Below, piece by piece: positions 1,920-17,587 of a stretch of DNA of 40,679 bases. Position 1 is the first letter of the stretch, and each line of letters opens with the position of its first letter. A model generated the notes under the pieces. It saw only the letters and a program-made list of their open reading frames with translations. It was not told the origin of the DNA and searched no databases. The stretch lies in contig JAYUBO010000021.1 in assembly GCA_043740815.1 (NCBI GenBank), positions 1-40,679 of the forward strand, given 5' to 3'. This stretch comes from Frankiales bacterium. GTDB taxonomy: Bacteria > Actinomycetota > Actinomycetes > Mycobacteriales > SCTD01. The position numbers and the translations under genes were made by a program.

Positions 1920-1961
1920 CGGTGCGCGTGTCGCAGTGCGGTCCACCTCCGGGGTAGTCCA

Positions 1962-2283
1962 GAATAGAACGAGGCCCCTCCATGTATGAGATGGAGGGGC
2001 CTCGACGCTCTTCGATGCACCATCGACCGATTGCTCAGTCAACGCGTCTCGAGGAGCGGGTCCCGGCCAGTCGACTCGAGCCCCGAAGGTCTCGTGCGCG
2101 ACGTTCCGGTCGGGCTGGCTGCATGGCCCGCCGATTGCTCGGCTAGCTTGCTCTGCCGTCCCGGCCACCGGTCGCTCAGTCCTGCCTGACGTCCCGGTTT
2201 CCCGGTGCGCCTGGTGCGGAAGCGAACTCCCGCTCGGCCTTCGTTCCTGGTGACAGGACTGAGGTTTGCCTGCTGGACCCCAG
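1962..2283 (-). ncRNA. Candidate structured non-coding RNA of about 320 nt, class unassigned (Ms1/6S-like is one hypothesis); ends approximate
   Basis: 530-bp gap between convergent genes with no credible ORF. Minus-strand hairpins: GCGGGAG-UUCG-CUUCCGC (2216-2233), CGAGACC-UUCG-GGGCUCG (2077-2094), CCGG-GAAA-CCGG (2193-2205), GCCGA-GCAA-UCGGC (2130-2143), GACUGA-GCAA-UCGGUC (2025-2040). Long-range helices: 2175-2184 with 2254-2263 (10 bp perfect) and 2058-2063 with 2275-2280. A promoter-like element lies upstream and a terminator downstream. Confidence 0.45.
1971..2003 (-). terminator. Intrinsic terminator hairpin with a 13-bp perfect stem; can serve both convergent directions
   Basis: GAGGCCCCTCCAT-gtatgag-ATGGAGGGGCCTC. 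On the minus strand the stem is followed by GTTCTATTCT (U-rich). On the plus strand the tail is not U-rich. Confidence 0.65.
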
Positions 2284-2289
2284 CCGTCA

Positions 2290-2318
2290 AGCCTTATGGG
2301 ACAGGGATTTTTCGTCAA
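2290..2318 (-). promoter_or_regulatory. Sigma-70-type promoter candidate for the RNA: -35 TTGACG, 17-nt spacer, -10 AAGGCT
   Basis: On the minus strand TTGACG is at 2318-2313 and AAGGCT at 2295-2290. A second TTGACG (2290-2285)-N17-AAACCT (2267-2262) follows, but its start site would fall inside the 10-bp helix. Confidence 0.3.
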
Positions 2319-2449: not shown

Positions 2450-3313
2450 TCAGTGGGGCAGCGGGATCTGCAAGACCTGCTCGGTGACGTCCCACAGTCG
2501 GGCTGCTGTCGCCGGGTCCGAGCCGGTCGTGTAGACGTCGAGCACCTCGGCCGGTCCACGGACCTGGTTGAACCGCTTCGGCCCGATGAAGGACCCGCTC
2601 GGCTCGAGCAGGGCACGCAACGTCGGTTGGGCGCCGGCCTTGGCGGGCTGCAGGAAGACCGGACCGAGCACTTTCGCCACGGGCACCAGCCAGCCGCGGC
2701 CGTTGTCCTCGAGCTGTCGGGGGAACAGGTTGGTCCAGCTCACCCCGGGGTGGCACGCGACGCTGGCGACCCGGTCGCCGACCCGTCGGTGCAGCTCCTG
2801 CGCGAACAACAGGTTGGCCTGCTTGGTGTTCGAGTAGACCTTCTGCGACAGGTACGCCGGAGGGCTGATCAGGTCGTCGACCGTCAACTGGGGACCGAGG
2901 GATCCACCCCGGGCCGCGATGCTGCTGACCAGCACGACCCGTCCGCGGGACTGCTCTAGCAGCGGGAAGAGCCGGGCGATCAGGGCCGCGTGGCCGAGGT
3001 GGTTGGTGCCCATCTGCCGCTCATGACCCTGCACCGTGCCGAGTAGCGGGCCACCCATGACGCCGGCATTGCAGACGAGAGCGTCGACGCGGTCGGTACG
3101 GTCGGCGAACGCCTCGACGCTGTCGAGGTCCGCCAGGTCGAGCTCTCGCACGGCCATGCCCTGGGCGACGGCCGCAGCGCGGTTCGTATCTCGACAGGCC
3201 AGGACGACGTCGGCCCCGGCAGCCTTGAGGGCGAGCGCGGTCTGCAGGCCGATACCGGAGTTACCCCCGGTGATGACCACGGTGCGGTCACGCCAAGGCC
3301 GCAGGTCGATCAT
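2450..3313 (-). CDS. Short-chain dehydrogenase/reductase (SDR) family oxidoreductase
   Basis: TGGNSGIG cofactor motif, YSNTK catalytic motif, 287 aa. Confidence 0.9.
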   Translation of the reverse strand: MIDLRPWRDRTVVITGGNSGIGLQTALALKAAGADVVLACRDTNRAAAVAQGMAVRELDLADLDSVEAFADRTDRVDALVCNAGVMGGPLLGTVQGHERQMGTNHLGHAALIARLFPLLEQSRGRVVLVSSIAARGGSLGPQLTVDDLISPPAYLSQKVYSNTKQANLLFAQELHRRVGDRVASVACHPGVSWTNLFPRQLEDNGRGWLVPVAKVLGPVFLQPAKAGAQPTLRALLEPSGSFIGPKRFNQVRGPAEVLDVYTTGSDPATAARLWDVTEQVLQIPLPH

Positions 3314-3340
3314 GCGACCTCGATCATGTGTCGGTGACGG

Positions 3341-3526
3341 TCACTTGAAGCCGGGGGGCCCGACGGTGACCCCGTTGGGAGTGTTGCTGTAGCTCGGCTC
3401 GATCTTCGTCCCGCCGGCAGCCTCGATCACGACGTAGGTCCCGACGGTGTAGACCACGATGCCCAGAACGGCAGCCAGAATCACGCCGGTGTTGCTCTTG
3501 CCGACAGTTGTCCCCGACCTCGCCAT
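3341..3526 (-). CDS. Small hypothetical membrane protein (61 aa, one TM helix)
   Basis: High GC3 and a hydrophobic segment VILAAVLGIVVYTVGTYVVI. It lies 16 nt downstream of the rqlH-like stop. The ribosome-binding site is weak. Confidence 0.45.
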   Translation of the reverse strand: MARSGTTVGKSNTGVILAAVLGIVVYTVGTYVVIEAAGGTKIEPSYSNTPNGVTVGPPGFK

Positions 3527-3542
3527 GTACTCAATCTACCCA

Positions 3543-5609
3543 TCACCCGTCCAGGGCGAGTACCAGGGGCAGGACGGCGCTGGCCCCGGCGCGTCGCAGG
3601 ACTCGCGCGGCCTCCGTCAGGGTCCAGCCGGTGTCGCTGCGGTCGTCGACGAGCAGGACCACCTGACCGTCCAGCTCCCAGTCCGGGGGCACCGCAAACG
3701 CGCCGTGCACCGCGCGCAACCGCTGGGCACTGTTGGACCGCAGACCGGCCGTGGGCTGCACCGCCGTCAGTGTTCCGAGAGGCACGAGCTGGCCGACCTG
3801 GGCCAGCCGGGCCGCCAGCGAGCCGACGAGCTGCGGGTGAGCGGCCGAGGGCACCGCAGCCACCCGGGTGGGGCGCTCGGTCCACTGCCAACCGGTCAGA
3901 ACCGTGACGACCGCGGCGACGATGTCGTCGGGGACTGGTTGGTCCGGTGCGGACAGCAGCGCCCGCAGCCGGGTGCCCCAGCCGATGTCGGACAGCCTGC
4001 CGAGCGCCCGGCCGGCCTCGGCCCGCTCGCCGGGGGCGATCTTGCCGCCGACACCGAGCTCCTTCATGGCGGTGGGCCACATAGCGCGAGGCTCGAGGAC
4101 GACACCTGGACGACCCAGAGCAGCGTGGGCCGCGTCCAGCGCATGAGCCGAGACCTCCTGGGAGAGGGCGGTGCCGAGGCACCGGTCGCACCGCCCGCAG
4201 GGCGCGGCACCCGGGTCGTCGAGCTGACGGCGTAGGAACTCCATGCGGCACGCGGCGGTGCTGACGTAGTCGCGCATGGCCTGCTGCTCCGCCGCCCGGT
4301 CGGCGCTCACCTGGGCGTACCGCTCGGCGTCGTACGCCCAGGGCTGTCCGGTCGAGGTCCAGCCGCCCCGCACGCGGCGCACCGCCCCGTCCACGTCGAG
4401 CACCTTGAGCATGGACTCGAGCCGGGTCCGGCGAAGCTCGACCCGCGGCTCGAGGGCCGCCGTCGAGAGCGTCACCCCCGCAAGGGCCGCCAGGACCGTC
4501 CGGACCTGCTCCTCCGGCGGGAAGCCGAGCGAGGCGAAGTACGCCCAGATCGCCTCGTCCTCACGGCCAGGCAGCAGCACCACCTCGGCCCGCTCGACGC
4601 CGCGACCGGCGCGGCCGACCTGCTGGTAGTAGGCGATGGGGGAGCCCGGTGCCCCCAGGTGCACGACGAACCCCAGGTCGGGCTTGTCGAACCCCATGCC
4701 CAGCGCTGAGGTGGCGACCAGCGCCTTGACCCGGTTGGCGAGCAGGTCGTCCTCGGCCTGCCGCCGTTCCGCGTCGTCACTCTTGCCGCTGTAGGCGACG
4801 GCTGAGATCCCCCGGGAGCGAAGGAAACCTGCTACCTCCTCGGTGGCCGCGACGGTGAGCGTATAGACGATCCCGCTGCCGGGGGCCTGCCCGAGGAAGT
4901 CGGCGAGCCAGGCCAGTCGGTGGGCCGCGTCGGGCAGGACCGCGACCGAAAGGTGTAGCGACTCGCGCTCGAGGCCACCCCGCAGGACCAGCGTGTCGTC
5001 CCCGAGCTGGGTCGCCACATCCTTGACCACGCGCGCGTTGGCGGTGGCAGTGGTGGCGAGCACCGGCACGCCCTCGGGGAGCTCGGTGAGCAACGTCCTG
5101 ATCCGGCGGTAGTCGGGACGAAAGTCATGCCCCCAGTCGCTGATGCAGTGCGCCTCGTCGATGACGACCAGCCCCGCTGTCGCGGCCAGCTGCGGCAGCA
5201 CCTCGTCGCGAAAGCCCGGGTTGTTGAGCCGCTCGGGGCTGACCAGCAAGACGTCCGCGCGACCGGCGGCGATGTCGTCGTACACGCCTTGCCACTGCTC
5301 GAGGTTGCTGGAGTTGACCGTGACAGCCGTGATGCCCGCGCGCTCAGCAGCCGCGACCTGGTTGCGCATCAAGGCAAGCAGCGGGCTCACGATCACGGTC
5401 GGCCCGGCGCCGCGAGTGCGCAGCAGGGCTGTCGCGACGAAGTAGACCGCTGACTTGCCCCATCCGGTCCGCTGCACGACGAGGGCCCGGCGATGGTCGT
5501 GCACGAGCGCCGAGATGGCGCTCCACTGATCCTCGCGCAGGACCGCAGTCGGCCCGGCCAGCGCCTGCAGGACCAGCTCTGCGTCAGCGCGGGGGTCGGA
5601 CGTCACCAC
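3543..5609 (-). CDS. rqlH: RecQ-like ATP-dependent DNA helicase with a C-terminal ComF/phosphoribosyltransferase-like domain (RqlH type)
   Basis: Walker A TGWGKS, DEAH box VVIDEAHCISDWGHDFRPDY, tetracysteine CRMEF...CGRCDRC, PRT-like VVLLVDDRSDTGWTL near the C-terminus. 688 aa. Confidence 0.88.
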   Translation of the reverse strand: MVTSDPRADAELVLQALAGPTAVLREDQWSAISALVHDHRRALVVQRTGWGKSAVYFVATALLRTRGAGPTVIVSPLLALMRNQVAAAERAGITAVTVNSSNLEQWQGVYDDIAAGRADVLLVSPERLNNPGFRDEVLPQLAATAGLVVIDEAHCISDWGHDFRPDYRRIRTLLTELPEGVPVLATTATANARVVKDVATQLGDDTLVLRGGLERESLHLSVAVLPDAAHRLAWLADFLGQAPGSGIVYTLTVAATEEVAGFLRSRGISAVAYSGKSDDAERRQAEDDLLANRVKALVATSALGMGFDKPDLGFVVHLGAPGSPIAYYQQVGRAGRGVERAEVVLLPGREDEAIWAYFASLGFPPEEQVRTVLAALAGVTLSTAALEPRVELRRTRLESMLKVLDVDGAVRRVRGGWTSTGQPWAYDAERYAQVSADRAAEQQAMRDYVSTAACRMEFLRRQLDDPGAAPCGRCDRCLGTALSQEVSAHALDAAHAALGRPGVVLEPRAMWPTAMKELGVGGKIAPGERAEAGRALGRLSDIGWGTRLRALLSAPDQPVPDDIVAAVVTVLTGWQWTERPTRVAAVPSAAHPQLVGSLAARLAQVGQLVPLGTLTAVQPTAGLRSNSAQRLRAVHGAFAVPPDWELDGQVVLLVDDRSDTGWTLTEAARVLRRAGASAVLPLVLALDG

Positions 5610-13937: not shown

Positions 13938-14651
13938 TCAGCCCGGGACGGGGTAGGCGACGATGTCCGTGACGCTCCGGCCGGCGTCCAGACCCTGCTG
14001 TTCGAAGCGGGTGACCGGCCGGTGTGCGGGGCGGGGCAGGACCGAGGCGGTCCAGCCGTCGGCGAGCATCTCGAGGGCGTGCTCGGCATAGGCGCTGACA
14101 TCGGTGGCCATGTGCAGCCGGCCTCCCGGTGCGAGCCGTGACGCGACCAGGGCGGCGAAGTCGGGCCGGACCAGCCGTCGCTTGGCGTGCTTGGCCTTGG
14201 GCCAGGGGTCGGGGAAGAACAGTCGTACCTCAGCCAGCGACGACGGCGGCAGTGCCTCCAGAACAACGACCGCGTCGTCGCGGGCGACCCGGACGTTGGT
14301 GAGGTCCTGCTCCTCGAGCCGGCGCAGCAGGGCAGCGACACCGGCAGGGTGCACCTCGACCGCGATCAGGTCGAGGTGGGGTGTGGCGGCCGCCATCGCT
14401 GCCGTCGCCTCCCCCATCCCGGAGCCGATCTCGATGATGAGGCCCCGTTCACCGGCCAACCCCGCGTACGGCGCGTCGACGCCGTACACCGACCAGAGCC
14501 GGGAGAGCGCCTCCTGGGAGACCGGGCCGAGCCTGCCGGCCCGGACCTTGTAGCTGCGGATCCGCTCCGGGTGCTCGAGGGCCGACCTAGGCGACGTACT
14601 CGCGCAACCCGTCGGCCCGACCGCCCAGGCGCAGCTCTGCCAGCGTGTCAC
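13938..14651 (-). CDS. trmB: tRNA (guanine46-N7)-methyltransferase
   Basis: [11 protein letters not shown] motif and [16 protein letters not shown]. The only canonical in-frame start is GTG 14651, which overlaps the upstream sigma gene by 65 nt. Confidence 0.85.
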
Positions 14652-16167
14652 GCTCGATCTGGCGGATCCGCTCGCGGGTCAGGCCCAGATGGCGGCCGAC
14701 CTCGTCAAGGGTACGCGGGCGGCCGTCGTCGAGGCCGAAGCGCATCCGGACGACGATCGCGGAACGCTCGGGCAGCGAGCCCAGGACCTCGGACAACTGA
14801 GTCTGCAGCATCTGGGTCTCGACCGCCGCGACCGGGTCGACTGACTCGGTGTCGGTGATGAAGTCGCCAAGGGTTGCCTCGTCGTCACCGACCGGGCTCT
14901 GCAGGGACAGCGTGTCGCGACCGAACGCGATGATCTCCTCGACCTTCGCTGCGGTCATCTCCAGCGGCAGGCCGATCTCCTCCGAGGAGGGGTCGCGGCC
15001 GAGCGACTGGGTGAGCTCGCGCCGGACCCGGGTCACCTTGGTGATCAGCTCCGCCATGTGCACGGGCACGCGGATCGTGCGTCCCTGGTCGGCCAGCGCC
15101 CGCTGCAGGGCCTGACGGATCCACCACGTCGCGTACGTCGAGAACTTGTAGCCCTTGGCGTAGTCGAACTTCTCCACTGCGCGCACCAGACCGAGGTTGC
15201 CTTCCTGGACCAGATCAAGCAGGTCCAGCCCGCGTCCCTGGTAGCGCTTGGCCAGGGACACCACGAGGCGCAGGTTGGCCTCGAGCAGGTGCCGCTTGGC
15301 CTTGTCGCCGTCGTGGACGATCCAGGCCAGGTCGCGTTTGGTCGTGGGGGTGAGCTTGAGCCCCTCCTCGGCGTTCTGACGCAGCTTCTCGGTGGCGAAC
15401 AGCCCCGCCTCGATGCGCTTGGCGAGGTCGACCTCCTCGACGGCGGTCAGCAGCGGGACGCGGCCGATCTCGCGGAGGTAGGCCTTCACCAGGTCGATGC
15501 CGGGCGGCGGCTCGTCCAGGGCGAGAGGCTTGTCCTCCTCGGCAACGACGGGGGTCGGCGTGCCGTCCTCGTCCTCGTCGTCCTCCTCGTCGGCTGCGGC
15601 CGGCGCTGCCGCGGGGAGGACCTTCTTCGCCGCAGCGCGGCTGGCACGGACGCGAGGTGCGGGGGCCGTGCTGCCGGTGCCGGTGGCAGCGGTCTGGAGG
15701 ACGACCGCCGGCTCGGTCGCGTCGGTAGTCGTGAGGGTCGCGGTGCTGTCGGTCACGGTGGGGGTGACCTCCTCGCTGGTGAGGGTGGCGGTGATGCCGG
15801 TGGCAGCGGTGCCGGAAGTGGTGGGGGTGGTGGGGGTGTCGCTCGGGTGCGAGCTGCGGGCCGCCGGCTCGGCCGTGGTCCGGCCGACGGGACGGCTGGC
15901 CTGCTTTGCCGCAGGGCGGGCGGCCGGGCGCGCAGCCGGGGTACGGCGCGACGGGGCCTTGGGCTCACTGGCGCTGTCGCCGGTCACGATTACCGTGCCG
16001 CCCTCGGTGAGGCGACGAAGCACCACGCGGCCTTCGTCGGGGCCGATGCCGGCCTGCTCGAAGGTGCTCCGTAGTTGGGCAAGGGACAGCTGTCCCTGCG
16101 CCTGGGCACGCGCGACCAACGCCTCCACCGCAACAGCAGTGTCGCAGGGGCGGGCAGCGGTGGGCAT
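14587..16167 (-). CDS. sigB: Sigma-70 family sigma factor, SigB-like conserved core with a long N-terminal extension (526 aa)
   Basis: ATG 16167 with AAGGAG upstream. Regions 2-4 are present ([26 protein letters not shown]). The C-terminus [16 protein letters not shown]...[10 protein letters not shown]...[12 protein letters not shown] is like mycobacterial SigB. The N-terminus has a region-1.1-like segment and a Thr/Ala/Pro-rich linker. Confidence 0.88.
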
Positions 16168-16338
16168 GGTGCTTCTCCTTGATGGTGGGGAACTCTGGGA
16201 CGAACGAGACACTGGGCTGCGGACGGGTAGGACTCGTGTGGTTCGTGGCCAACCGTGCTCGCCGTTGCAGCGAGTACGATGGAAAGCCACTACCGCGGGT
16301 GGGGCCGCGCAACGGCATGCTGACGCCCGTATGGGCTC

Positions 16339-16364
16339 AACGATCCCAGGCTTCTGGGTGTTCC
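16339..16364 (-). promoter_or_regulatory. ECF (SigH/SigR/SigE-type) promoter candidate GGAAC-N17-CGTT upstream of the sigB-like gene
   Basis: On the minus strand GGAAC is at 16364-16360 and CGTT at 16342-16339. It lies about 170 nt upstream of the ATG. Confidence 0.4.
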
Positions 16365-16444
16365 GAAAGTTGTTGGTCGGTGAACTCTCTCACAGGACGC
16401 AGCCAATCCTGCTTCACTATGGCATCGCGGCCGCCCTGTCGCCG

Positions 16445-17461
16445 TCAGTCCAGGTAGTCCCGCAAGGCCTGTGACCGGCTCGGGTGCCGCAGCTTCGACA
16501 GCGTCTTGGACTCGATCTGGCGGATCCGTTCGCGCGTAAGCCCGAACTCGCGGCCTATCTCATCCAGCGTCTTCGGCTCGCCGTCGGTGAGCCCGAAGCG
16601 CATCTTCACCACTGCCGATTCGCGCTCGGACAGGGTCGTCAGGACGTCGTGGAGCTGCTCCTGCATCATCGCGTAGGACACGACGTCGACAGCCACCGGT
16701 GCGTCGGCGTCCTCGATGAAGTCTCCCAGGCTGCTGTCGTTCTCGTCGCCGATGACCGACTGAAGCGACACCGGCTCGCGGGCGTACCGCTGGATCTCTA
16801 GGACCTTCTCGACGCTGAGGTCGAGCTCGGTGGCCAGCTCCTCGGGTGTTGCCTCCCGGCCGAGCGTCTGAAGCAGCTCGCGCTGCAACCGAGTCAGCTT
16901 GTTGATCTGCTCCACCATGTGCACCGGGATCCTGATGGTGCGTGCCTGGTCGGCCATCGCGCGGGTGATCGCCTGGCGGATCCACCACGTGGCGTACGTC
17001 GAGAACTTGAAGCCTTTGGTGTAGTCGAATTTCTCCACAGCCCGGATCAGCCCGAGGTTGCCCTCCTGGATCAGGTCCAGGAACAGCATGCCGCGACCGA
17101 GGTAGCGCTTGGCGATGCTCACGACCAGGCGCAGGTTGGCCTCGAGCAGGTGCTGTTTGGCCTTCTCCCCGTCGCGTACCAACCACGTCAGGTCTTTGTG
17201 AAGCGCGACCGACAGCTTCTGCTGGGTGAGCTTGTGCGTCGCGAACAGCCCCGCCTCGATCCGCTGCGAGAGCTCGACCTCCTGGGCGGCGGTCAGCAAC
17301 GGCGTCTTGCCGATTTCTTTGAGGTATGCCCGGACCAGGTCGGTCGAGATGCCGCCCGAGTCCAGCGGCGCGTCCTTCTCGTCCTGCTCCTCGACCTCGC
17401 CGACGACCGGCTCGACCTCCTCATCGAGGCCGTCGACCGTCTCGACCGTTGCTGTGCTCAT
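16445..17461 (-). CDS. sigA: Sigma-70 family sigma factor, principal-sigma-like (SigA/HrdB-like core) but short (338 aa)
   Basis: ATG 17461 with GGAGG upstream. [34 protein letters not shown] and C-terminal [16 protein letters not shown] closely match HrdB/SigA. There is only a short acidic N-terminus. Confidence 0.88.
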
Positions 17462-17509
17462 GGAGACCTCCGGTGGTGCTCGTGGTGCATGTTGTCCTTG
17501 TGCCCTCAC

Positions 17510-17535
17510 AACCGTTGGGCACACACGTGCGTTCC
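17510..17535 (-). promoter_or_regulatory. ECF (SigH/SigR-type) promoter-like motif GGAAC-N17-GGTT upstream of the sigA-like gene
   Basis: On the minus strand GGAAC is at 17535-17531 and GGTT at 17513-17510. The GGAAC-to-GTT spacing is the same as at the sigB-like gene. Confidence 0.3.
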
Positions 17536-17587
17536 CCGCGTCCATGACAATCACGTGACATCTCACCCGAACACGCCGGACGTGGAT

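Follow-up and report, generated by a model that had tools for sequence, protein, structure and literature searches.

A candidate structured RNA gene with a length-variable hairpin array and upstream DnaA-box-like sequences in an uncultured Frankiales lineage

The gap between two convergent genes

Within the window, by which we mean the whole stretch analysed (40,679 nucleotides of contig JAYUBO010000021.1 from a Frankiales bacterium, assembly GCA_043740815.1), an oxidoreductase gene on the plus strand, ending at 1919, and an SDR gene on the minus strand, ending at 2450, converge upon a gap of 530 bp. The gap holds a non-coding, strand-specifically structured unit which, read along the minus strand, comprises a cluster of DnaA-box-like 9-mers, a promoter-like block, a 5′ domain, a middle of tetraloop-capped hairpins, a 3′ domain and an intrinsic terminator. 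The original prediction, made from the letters of the window, had proposed a structured minus-strand RNA at this site. The comparison with relatives upholds that candidate: it is conserved, its helices carry compensatory changes, and it has a promoter-like block and a terminator of its own. We consider it very probable that the unit is a real RNA gene.

Related loci were anchored on the SDR gene (56 loci from a genome collection), and further loci came from 12 contig look-ups; the loci retrieved were then searched with profiles and covariance models. Sixteen homologous units (15 fully extracted, plus that of locus L199) were found in assemblies of uncultured Frankiales/Mycobacteriales, along with partial copies at the contig ends of L009 and L187. 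The order of parts was common to all units, i.e., TTGTCCACA-like boxes, an A-tract with a CCAGG.CTTG(ACG/TGC) block, the 5′ domain, a variable middle, the 3′ domain and a near-identical terminator. The gene upstream was SDR in the window and an M23 peptidase in L179, L185, L186, L196, L197 and L199, and the promoter block was retained with either one. The downstream neighbour was the convergent oxidoreductase in the window, L001–L004, L006, L177 and L186; in L012, L179, L196 and L197 it was an MGDG-synthase-like glycosyltransferase gene on the same strand, about 175–210 nt away. Because the flanking genes vary on both sides, the unit appears to be self-contained and to occupy a syntenic position.

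A covariance model of the 3′ domain region, R1, found exactly one copy per positive locus when the window and 78 related loci (591 kb) were searched. No plasmid or phage relatives were found by blastn or by a scan of viral contigs for the terminator motif, and a metagenome scan with the conserved two-box motif recovered no homologue of the RNA unit. Within the sequences sampled, the family is confined to a single uncultured lineage of Frankiales/Mycobacteriales. Metagenome-assembled genomes (MAGs) and metagenome contigs supplied all of the related loci, a Frankiales MAG gave the best SDR match (97%), and the lineage was represented in freshwater, glacier-stream and soil metagenomes only. In L195, one of the relatives without the RNA, the SDR/DSBA genes are followed downstream by a fragment of a DDE_Tnp_1_4 transposase (3009–3443 of that locus), and because of this fragment the region appears prone to rearrangement.

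The two strands of the gap folded differently. With the terminator included, z was −6.1 for the minus strand vs. −3.2 for the plus strand; without it, z was −3.2 for the minus strand (0/200 shuffles were as stable) vs. +0.05 for the plus strand. In the 15 extracted homologues, the sense strand had 87 hairpins capped by GNRA or UNCG loops and the antisense strand 26, with 11.8 ± 3.5 in shuffled sequences, and the RNA strand contained 5–13% U and 54–61% purine. Of the comparisons between strands, tetraloop identity and the z-scores against shuffles were the informative ones. The ORFs (open reading frames) of the gap had been judged unlike proteins, in agreement with two observations: third-position GC was flat, at about 0.75 in all six frames of the long homologues, compared with 0.83–0.94 in the window genes; and single-nucleotide indels fell inside the 2039–2290 ORF when the window was compared with its close relatives L001, L002 and L003.

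Promoter, domains and terminator of the predicted RNA

The predicted transcript of about 294 nt (1961–2254, minus strand) would begin at 2254 ± 4 and end in a U-rich tail; it is proposed from the geometry of promoter and terminator, from the strand-specific structure, and from the homologous units in 15 other loci. The predicted −35 hexamer TTGACG (2285–2290, minus strand) reads TTGTGC or TTGCGC in other subgroups. The predicted −10 hexamer AAACCT (2262–2267, minus strand) keeps its place and its second-position A in the relatives, with the variants GAACCT, GAGCCT, GACCCT, GAACGT, GACCTT, TAAACA(T), TACACA(T) and TAGACA(T) among them. The spacing from the −35 to the NANNNT hexamer was fixed at 17–18 nt in 15/15 extracted units. 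Upstream of the −35 is an A-tract, GAAAAATCC (2305–2313, minus strand), which by its position resembles an UP element; it belongs to the conserved block GAAA(A/G)T(C/T)C..GTT.CCAGG.CTTG that was kept in all units. The presence of an A-tract at this position in a genome of 70% GC hints at a strong promoter. A different promoter, TTGACG-N17-AAGGCT (2318–2290), had been proposed at first and does not hold: AAGGCT is not conserved, its spacing to TTGACG shifts by 12 nt through an insertion in the type B units, and the conserved promoter sits 28 nt downstream of it.

At the other end of the unit, the intrinsic terminator (1961–2004, minus strand) is made of a 14-bp stem with the loop CUCAUAC (1970–2004) and the tail UUCUAUUCU (1961–1969). 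Ten of the 14 bp are G-C pairs, the loop is of 7 nt, and a terminator scan placed the U-rich tail on the minus strand only; this is the arrangement expected of an intrinsic terminator, in which a GC-rich stem-loop precedes a run rich in U on the strand that is transcribed. The framing stem and its one-sided tail were as originally described, with a stem (2004–1970) of 14 rather than 13 bp. Changes in the stem were compensated in L196, L197, L010/L011 and L012. The MAFFT alignment of all terminators offset the arms of type B by one column, and pair counts were not drawn from it. The loop CUCAUAC (1984–1990, minus strand) was invariant in 12/15 units, which exceeds what a terminator needs.

The 5′ domain contains two hairpins. 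The first, H1 (GCGGGAG-UUCG-CUUCCGC; 2216–2233, minus strand), had 98% of alignment cells paired in 13 sequences, with both sides changed at 5/7 pairs and with a loop that alternates among UUCG, UCCG, GCAA and GCGA. The second, H2 (CCGG-GAAA-CCGG; 2194–2205, minus strand), was conserved in the same number of sequences, with GAAA, GCAA or GAGA as the loop and a compensatory change at 2/4 core pairs (58-69 and 59-68). For the domain as a whole, 92% of cells were paired in the 13 sequences, vs. 26–52% when the partners were slid, and compensatory two-sided changes were found at 8/12 pairs. Because the loops of H1 and H2 switch, the conserved trait appears to be a stable tetraloop and no particular loop sequence.

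The 3′ domain (2006–2058, minus strand), preceded by CCGGGACC, is a three-tier helix composed of a closing helix, the GCA/UGC pairing of GGUGCA, and the apical hairpin GACUGA-GCAA-UCGGUC (2040–2025); the apical GNRA-capped hairpin reads GAGCAAUC or GAGCGAUC. In 10 sequences 92% of the cells were paired, and 11 compensatory pairs were counted vs. 5.6 ± 1.5 in shuffles and 1–4 in slid controls. Compensatory changes were thus found in both end domains when the orthologous gaps were compared, and in each domain 0/500 shuffles matched the observed count. Model R1, built from ten type A sequences, recovered five unseen type B units with E = 5e-13 to 8e-6. G-U pairs were present in the helices supported by covariation.

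Between the end domains the unit is elastic. In the window the consensus fold of its subgroup gives two middle modules: M3 (2112–2162, minus strand), an imperfect hairpin of about 50 nt whose apex is GCCGA-GCAA-UCGGC (2143–2130), and M4 (2063–2109, minus strand), a CCGG...CCGG hairpin with the UUCG-capped apex CGAGACC-UUCG-GGGCUCG (2094–2077). The apex of M3 changed in L002 from CCGA/UCGG to CUAA/UUGG and its loop from GCAA to GUGA, which is still GNRA; M3 was also a weak self-match to the 3′-domain model. The length of the unit, from the −35 to the tail, was 336 nt in the window, 199 nt in L004, 780 nt in L011 and 941 nt in L010, and the number of tetraloop-capped hairpins scaled with it, from 2 to 14 among the homologues. 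The window has five, all of which (two with UUCG loops, one with GAAA and two with GCAA) were found where the original prediction had placed them.

The recurring middle hairpin is about 46 nt long, with a GGACC/GGUCC or CCGG/CCGG base, purine-rich internal loops, and an apex of the pattern ...GC-AG-GGC-A-NCC-GCAA-GGN-AG-GCC-GGC...; TRF detected tandem repeats with periods of 46, 49 and 94 nt. When folded, the L011 RNA (z = −6.6) formed a series of these hairpins. The apical stems of paralogous modules differed with compensation (GCC/GGC, CCC/GGG, CUC/GAG and GUC/GAC), and their pairing reached past the base pairs that were demanded when the hairpins were selected. Of 77 apical loops, 51 were GCAA, 8 GCGA, 7 GAGA, 3 GGGA and 2 GAAA; the other 6 were single GNRA- or UNCG-type loops, including 3 UUCG.

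Several further pairings were considered for the window. The threefold CCGGGAC and the twofold GAGCAAUCGG noted at the outset are there, and the two copies of GAGCAAUCGG are the only ones in the window. The complementarity behind two proposed long-range helices, of 10 bp (2254–2263 with 2175–2184) and of 6 bp (2275–2280 with 2058–2063), likewise exists; the 5′ arm of each varies uncompensated in L002 and L003. Both helices were rejected, being not conserved and having their 5′ arms inside the promoter spacer, −10 and start region. A 5′–3′ closing helix (GGAAC with GUUCC past the terminator) was rejected as well, since it appeared in the fold of the window subgroup and was absent in L179, L185, L186 and L197.

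The upstream DnaA-box-like array and the wider neighbourhood

The sequence TTGTCCACA is the high-affinity DnaA box of Mycobacterium tuberculosis and Streptomyces coelicolor (PMC4285127, Table 1). Seven 9-mers resembling it lie at 2312–2407 on the plus strand, i.e., antisense to the RNA: TCGTCAACA (2312–2320), ATGTCCACA (2323–2331), a degenerate box TTGGTCCCC (2344–2352), TTGTCCACC (2366–2374), TTGTCCCCA (2377–2385), ATATCCCCA (2389–2397) and CTGTCCCCA (2399–2407), with start-to-start spacings of 11, 21, 22, 11, 12 and 10 nt. When the 40.7-kb window was scanned for TTGTCCACA with ≤1 mismatch, 3/5 matches fell in the array, within 63 bp, and all three exact matches to TGTCCMCA were inside it. 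Over 15 loci the density of boxes was 16.7/kb in the 150 nt upstream of the −35 vs. 0.072/kb elsewhere, a difference of about 230-fold, and no other cluster of ≥3 boxes was present in the related loci (590 kb). The boxes form a ladder of about 11-nt steps (at about −40, −52, −62, −73, −83, −94, −105, −117 and −129), the distal box being inverted in most units; in the type B units, the 12-nt insertion displaces them by about one helical turn. The 9-mers were near-invariant in the alignments of relatives, and perfect TTGTCCACA boxes occurred in L006, L185 and L199.

The relatives present three natural states of the locus, namely boxes with the RNA, boxes alone, and neither. Boxes alone were seen in L181 (4877–4950), and also in L182, L183 and L184, where two perfect TTATCCACA boxes accompany TTGTCCACA-like ones; the SDR–oxidoreductase gap of L181 is only 90 bp. 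In L188 (6690–6710) there are neither boxes nor RNA, and the stop codon of the M23 peptidase abuts that of the oxidoreductase. Because L181–L184 retain the cluster without the RNA, it is a conserved element of its own that is usually joined to the RNA promoter, and the boxes need not exist to regulate the RNA.

The array has what is expected of a DnaA-box cluster outside an origin, i.e., at least three clustered, intergenic close matches whose conservation is independent of the neighbouring sequence. Neither dnaA nor dnaN was found in the 40-kb window by Pfam annotation, and for this reason the array is not oriC. The metagenome scan with the two-box motif returned mainly oriC-like DnaA-box arrays of unrelated bacteria, a result that fits the identification of the boxes. 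We think it probable that the boxes bind DnaA. There are also about 10 unrelated metagenome contigs (L064, L073, L075 at about 945–1015, L109, L111, L130, L142, L148, L162 and L170; GC 0.61–0.68) in which the two-DnaA-box motif is followed directly by ≥3 tandem direct repeats of about 23 nt, CACGTGCTATCRGGAACC; these resemble iterons, such as belong to replication origins of the plasmid or chromid type.

Upstream of the SDR gene, on the minus strand (3341–5609), the window encodes a RecQ/DEAD-like helicase with a C-terminal phosphoribosyltransferase-like tail (3543–5609), followed by a 61-codon ORF without a Pfam match (3341–3526) that lies just upstream of SDR. A cluster of HTH_17, helicase, 50–63-aa ORF and SDR was kept in most of the contig-look-up loci, the helicase being missing in L185, L186, L187 and L199. 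Farther away, two adjacent genes of the sigma-70 family (14590–16389 and 16448–17587, minus strand), with regions 1.2, 2, 3 and 4, resemble a sigA/sigB-like tandem; they share DNA repeats of 74–77% identity (14899–15198 with 16760–17059, and 15383–15496 with 17229–17342).

Interpretation and alternatives

The whole is best explained, in our estimate with a probability of about 0.5, as an undescribed RNA gene with an elastic hairpin array, a DnaA-coupled promoter, and a scaffold or sponge function. Minus-strand transcription would start near 2254 from a sigma-A-type promoter (−35 at 2290–2285, −10 at 2267–2262) and end at the terminator near 1961. The product would be a separate RNA, about 294 nt long for the window and roughly 155–900 nt for the relatives. 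Being U-poor and almost fully paired, this RNA should be long-lived. Because the number of modules is free to vary and the tetraloops are interchangeable, an additive, multivalent function seems most likely: acting as a scaffold or sponge, the RNA would take up a protein in many copies at its repeated stems, internal loops or CCGG/GGAC junctions, and would not depend on one precise tertiary fold. We hold this mechanism of multivalent protein binding as a possibility short of a favoured one.

Phased DnaA boxes situated 20–120 nt upstream of the −35 would couple the promoter to DnaA occupancy, and the output of RNA would then follow the replication status. That DnaA may modulate the promoter is suggested by the position of the boxes upstream of the core promoter and by their shift of about one helical turn in type B; regulation of the RNA promoter by DnaA is a tentative proposal, a little below an even chance. 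It is doubtful, though worth stating, that the box array and the RNA make up one replication-coupled module, in which the occupancy of the boxes by DnaA would determine how much is made of a long-lived, multivalent RNA, which in turn sequesters or scaffolds a protein, or that transcription instead tunes a DnaA-binding site like datA or DARS.

A number of observations weigh against this interpretation. The −10 is a weak match to TANNNT, having the form NANNNT, and the start site is placed by prediction; the consensus of the window subgroup admits an alternative 5′ fold which never varies; the middle is unalignable between subgroups, its structure being drawn from folding and from the comparison of paralogues; and the sense strand had the lower minimum free energy in 10/15 units only. 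The RNA gene is missing in the close relatives L180–L184 and L188–L195, four of which (L181–L184) keep the box cluster at the same site. Since close relatives are without it, the RNA gene is dispensable and not essential. The support comes from metagenome assemblies throughout, expression is predicted from it, and no candidate binding protein was identified for the proposed scaffold or sponge.

The first alternative is that the element acts as DNA, i.e., that a DnaA-box cluster of the datA, DARS or B. subtilis DnaA-box-cluster (DBC) type lies beside an array of hairpins whose RNA has no function; variants of it are REP/BIME-like palindromes, or a transcription that merely modulates the binding of DnaA. 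The cluster does resemble known ones outside origins (E. coli datA and DARS, the DBCs of B. subtilis, a Streptomyces cluster), being intergenic, outside oriC, conserved and made of several close box matches, and its conservation without the RNA gene in L181–L184 would be expected if the DNA were what matters. The DBCs of B. subtilis also regulate adjacent promoters. It differs from these clusters in being joined, as a rule, to a structured RNA's promoter and in forming a ladder of about 11 nt. As to palindromes, REP/BIME arrays likewise consist of imperfect palindromes, vary in copy number and lie between convergent genes; they occur, however, as hundreds of dispersed copies and work mostly at the level of DNA or of mRNA 3′ ends, whereas the present element is single-copy in the sampled sequence (no second copy was found in 590 kb from the related loci, nor any on plasmids or phages) and has covarying unique ends, a promoter of its own and strand-specific structure. 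None of the repeat families in the window includes the gap, and a REP/BIME-like repeat was ruled out by copy number and by the strand-specific RNA features. The tetraloops, the G-U pairs and the excess of folding on one strand point to selection on RNA over cruciform DNA. The conserved end domains also covary, and we consider an account at the level of DNA unlikely.

A second alternative, which we rate as quite unlikely, is that the structured region is a long 3′ untranslated region (UTR) belonging to the SDR or M23 peptidase gene upstream, from which a stable 3′-derived RNA might be processed. The orientation is always that of the upstream gene, no terminator lies between its stop codon and the RNA, and the −10 is weak. 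The same block, however, follows different upstream genes; a non-coding DnaA-box array of about 130 nt separates the stop codon from the structured part; and a conserved −35, spacer and −10, along with the A-tract, stand ahead of the structured part in all units.

The original prediction had likened the RNA to the Ms1/6S class, and the third alternative is accordingly a highly diverged Ms1/6S-like RNA of this lineage that would bind the RNA polymerase core through an open-promoter-like bubble and accumulate in stationary phase. Ms1 is situated near oriC, is transcribed towards it, and binds the RNA polymerase core without sigma A. Ms1 RNA (MTS2823/scr3559) shares with the window unit that it is a stand-alone actinobacterial small RNA gene with a sigma-A-like promoter, an intrinsic terminator and a high degree of structure; that it is about 300 nt long, as the window transcript of about 294 nt would be; that an oxidoreductase is a neighbour; and that it lies near the origin, as the window RNA lies beside DnaA boxes. 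The homologues of Ms1 are so divergent that synteny was the main means of tracing them, and Frankiales yielded neither Ms1 nor the syntenic arrangement (PMC9130861), which leaves room for a diverged member.

The evidence from comparison does not favour this. Searches of Rfam at the gathering score and at E ≤ 10 (the window, 13 homologous loci and the long L011 RNA), with the Ms1 and 6S models included, gave chance microRNA and small nucleolar RNA matches only, and no family matched the window or the 13 loci; with blastn, the best match to the experimentally mapped S. coelicolor Ms1 had E = 0.59. The synteny partner of Ms1 is a HAD-IB hydrolase/phosphoserine phosphatase (PMC9130861), and no gene of the HAD family was found in the 40-kb window by Pfam annotation or in the gene tables of 20 related loci; the label "oxidoreductase" is generic, and the family is not stated in the Ms1 papers. 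Ms1 adopts a long hairpin fold whose central bubble is conserved (PMC4191392), in contrast to the present chain of local tetraloop hairpins with its roughly sixfold range of length (about 155 to 900 nt), in which no conserved central bubble or 5′–3′ closing stem was found across the subgroups. Membership in the Ms1 family is not supported, and the alternative as a whole is improbable; a functional analogue of Ms1 is possible. The comparison with 6S RNA is similar: 6S is an abundant structured small RNA that acts on a protein and not by base pairing, as the window RNA is presumed to do, and it is unlike the window family in being a rod of 150–210 nt with a central bubble, where the window family is of variable length and gave no match to the 6S models of Rfam.

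Very improbable is a role as cis-acting leader for the MGDG-synthase-like glycosyltransferase gene, which follows on the same strand, about 175–210 nt on, in L012, L179, L196 and L197; in the window and in L001–L004, L006, L177 and L186 the convergent oxidoreductase intervenes, the terminator is strong and invariant, and no conserved antiterminator pairing was detected. That the region encodes a small protein, e.g., from the 83-codon ORF at 2039–2290 on the minus strand, is hardly credible although ORFs are open in several frames, for this ORF begins at the −35 hexamer, its translations are Arg/Gly/Pro-rich as random high-GC sequence would give, the length changes by whole hairpin modules, and the indels and flat third-position GC described above stand against it.

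Returning to the RNA gene with an elastic hairpin array, its nearest likenesses elsewhere are partial. CsrB, CsrC and RsmX, RsmY and RsmZ are also stand-alone genes with a strong terminator and repeated short hairpins of variable number, a likeness suggestive of multivalent protein sequestration; their loops show GGA for CsrA/RsmA, whereas the window family has interchangeable GNRA/UNCG tetraloops, and a recurring GGA motif was not found among the 77 apical loops. To our knowledge, Actinobacteria are without CsrA and also without Hfq and ProQ, and we know of few protein-binding RNAs in them beyond Ms1. OLE, GOLLD, ROOL and raiA are, like the present family, structured RNAs found by comparative genomics, with covariation support and with biochemical function not established; they have fixed, complex multi-stem folds in contrast to the modular, length-elastic window family, and no Rfam match to them was seen. 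A full-text search of the literature found no description of a DnaA-box-associated small RNA or of a tandem tetraloop-hairpin RNA in Actinobacteria. As far as sampled, this is an undescribed RNA family, and no close precedent was found for its combination of conserved ends, an elastic tetraloop array and a DnaA-box cluster.

If either version of the replication-coupled module is true, the family would add a new class to the protein-binding RNAs and would provide a new link from the initiator of replication to RNA-based regulation in Actinobacteria. A conserved RNA whose ultra-stable hairpins form an elastic array would represent a new architectural class, in which module dose offers an experimental handle, and a helically phased DnaA-box cluster outside oriC makes it testable whether the initiator controls, or is controlled via, the locus of a structured RNA. 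Ready-made comparisons for this are offered by the three states in which the locus occurs naturally. Should it prove to be only a minor clade-specific small RNA, the earlier Ms1 guess would still have been corrected and a well-supported family added for Rfam. In either case the RNA may serve as a marker for the unexplored biology of uncultured actinobacteria.

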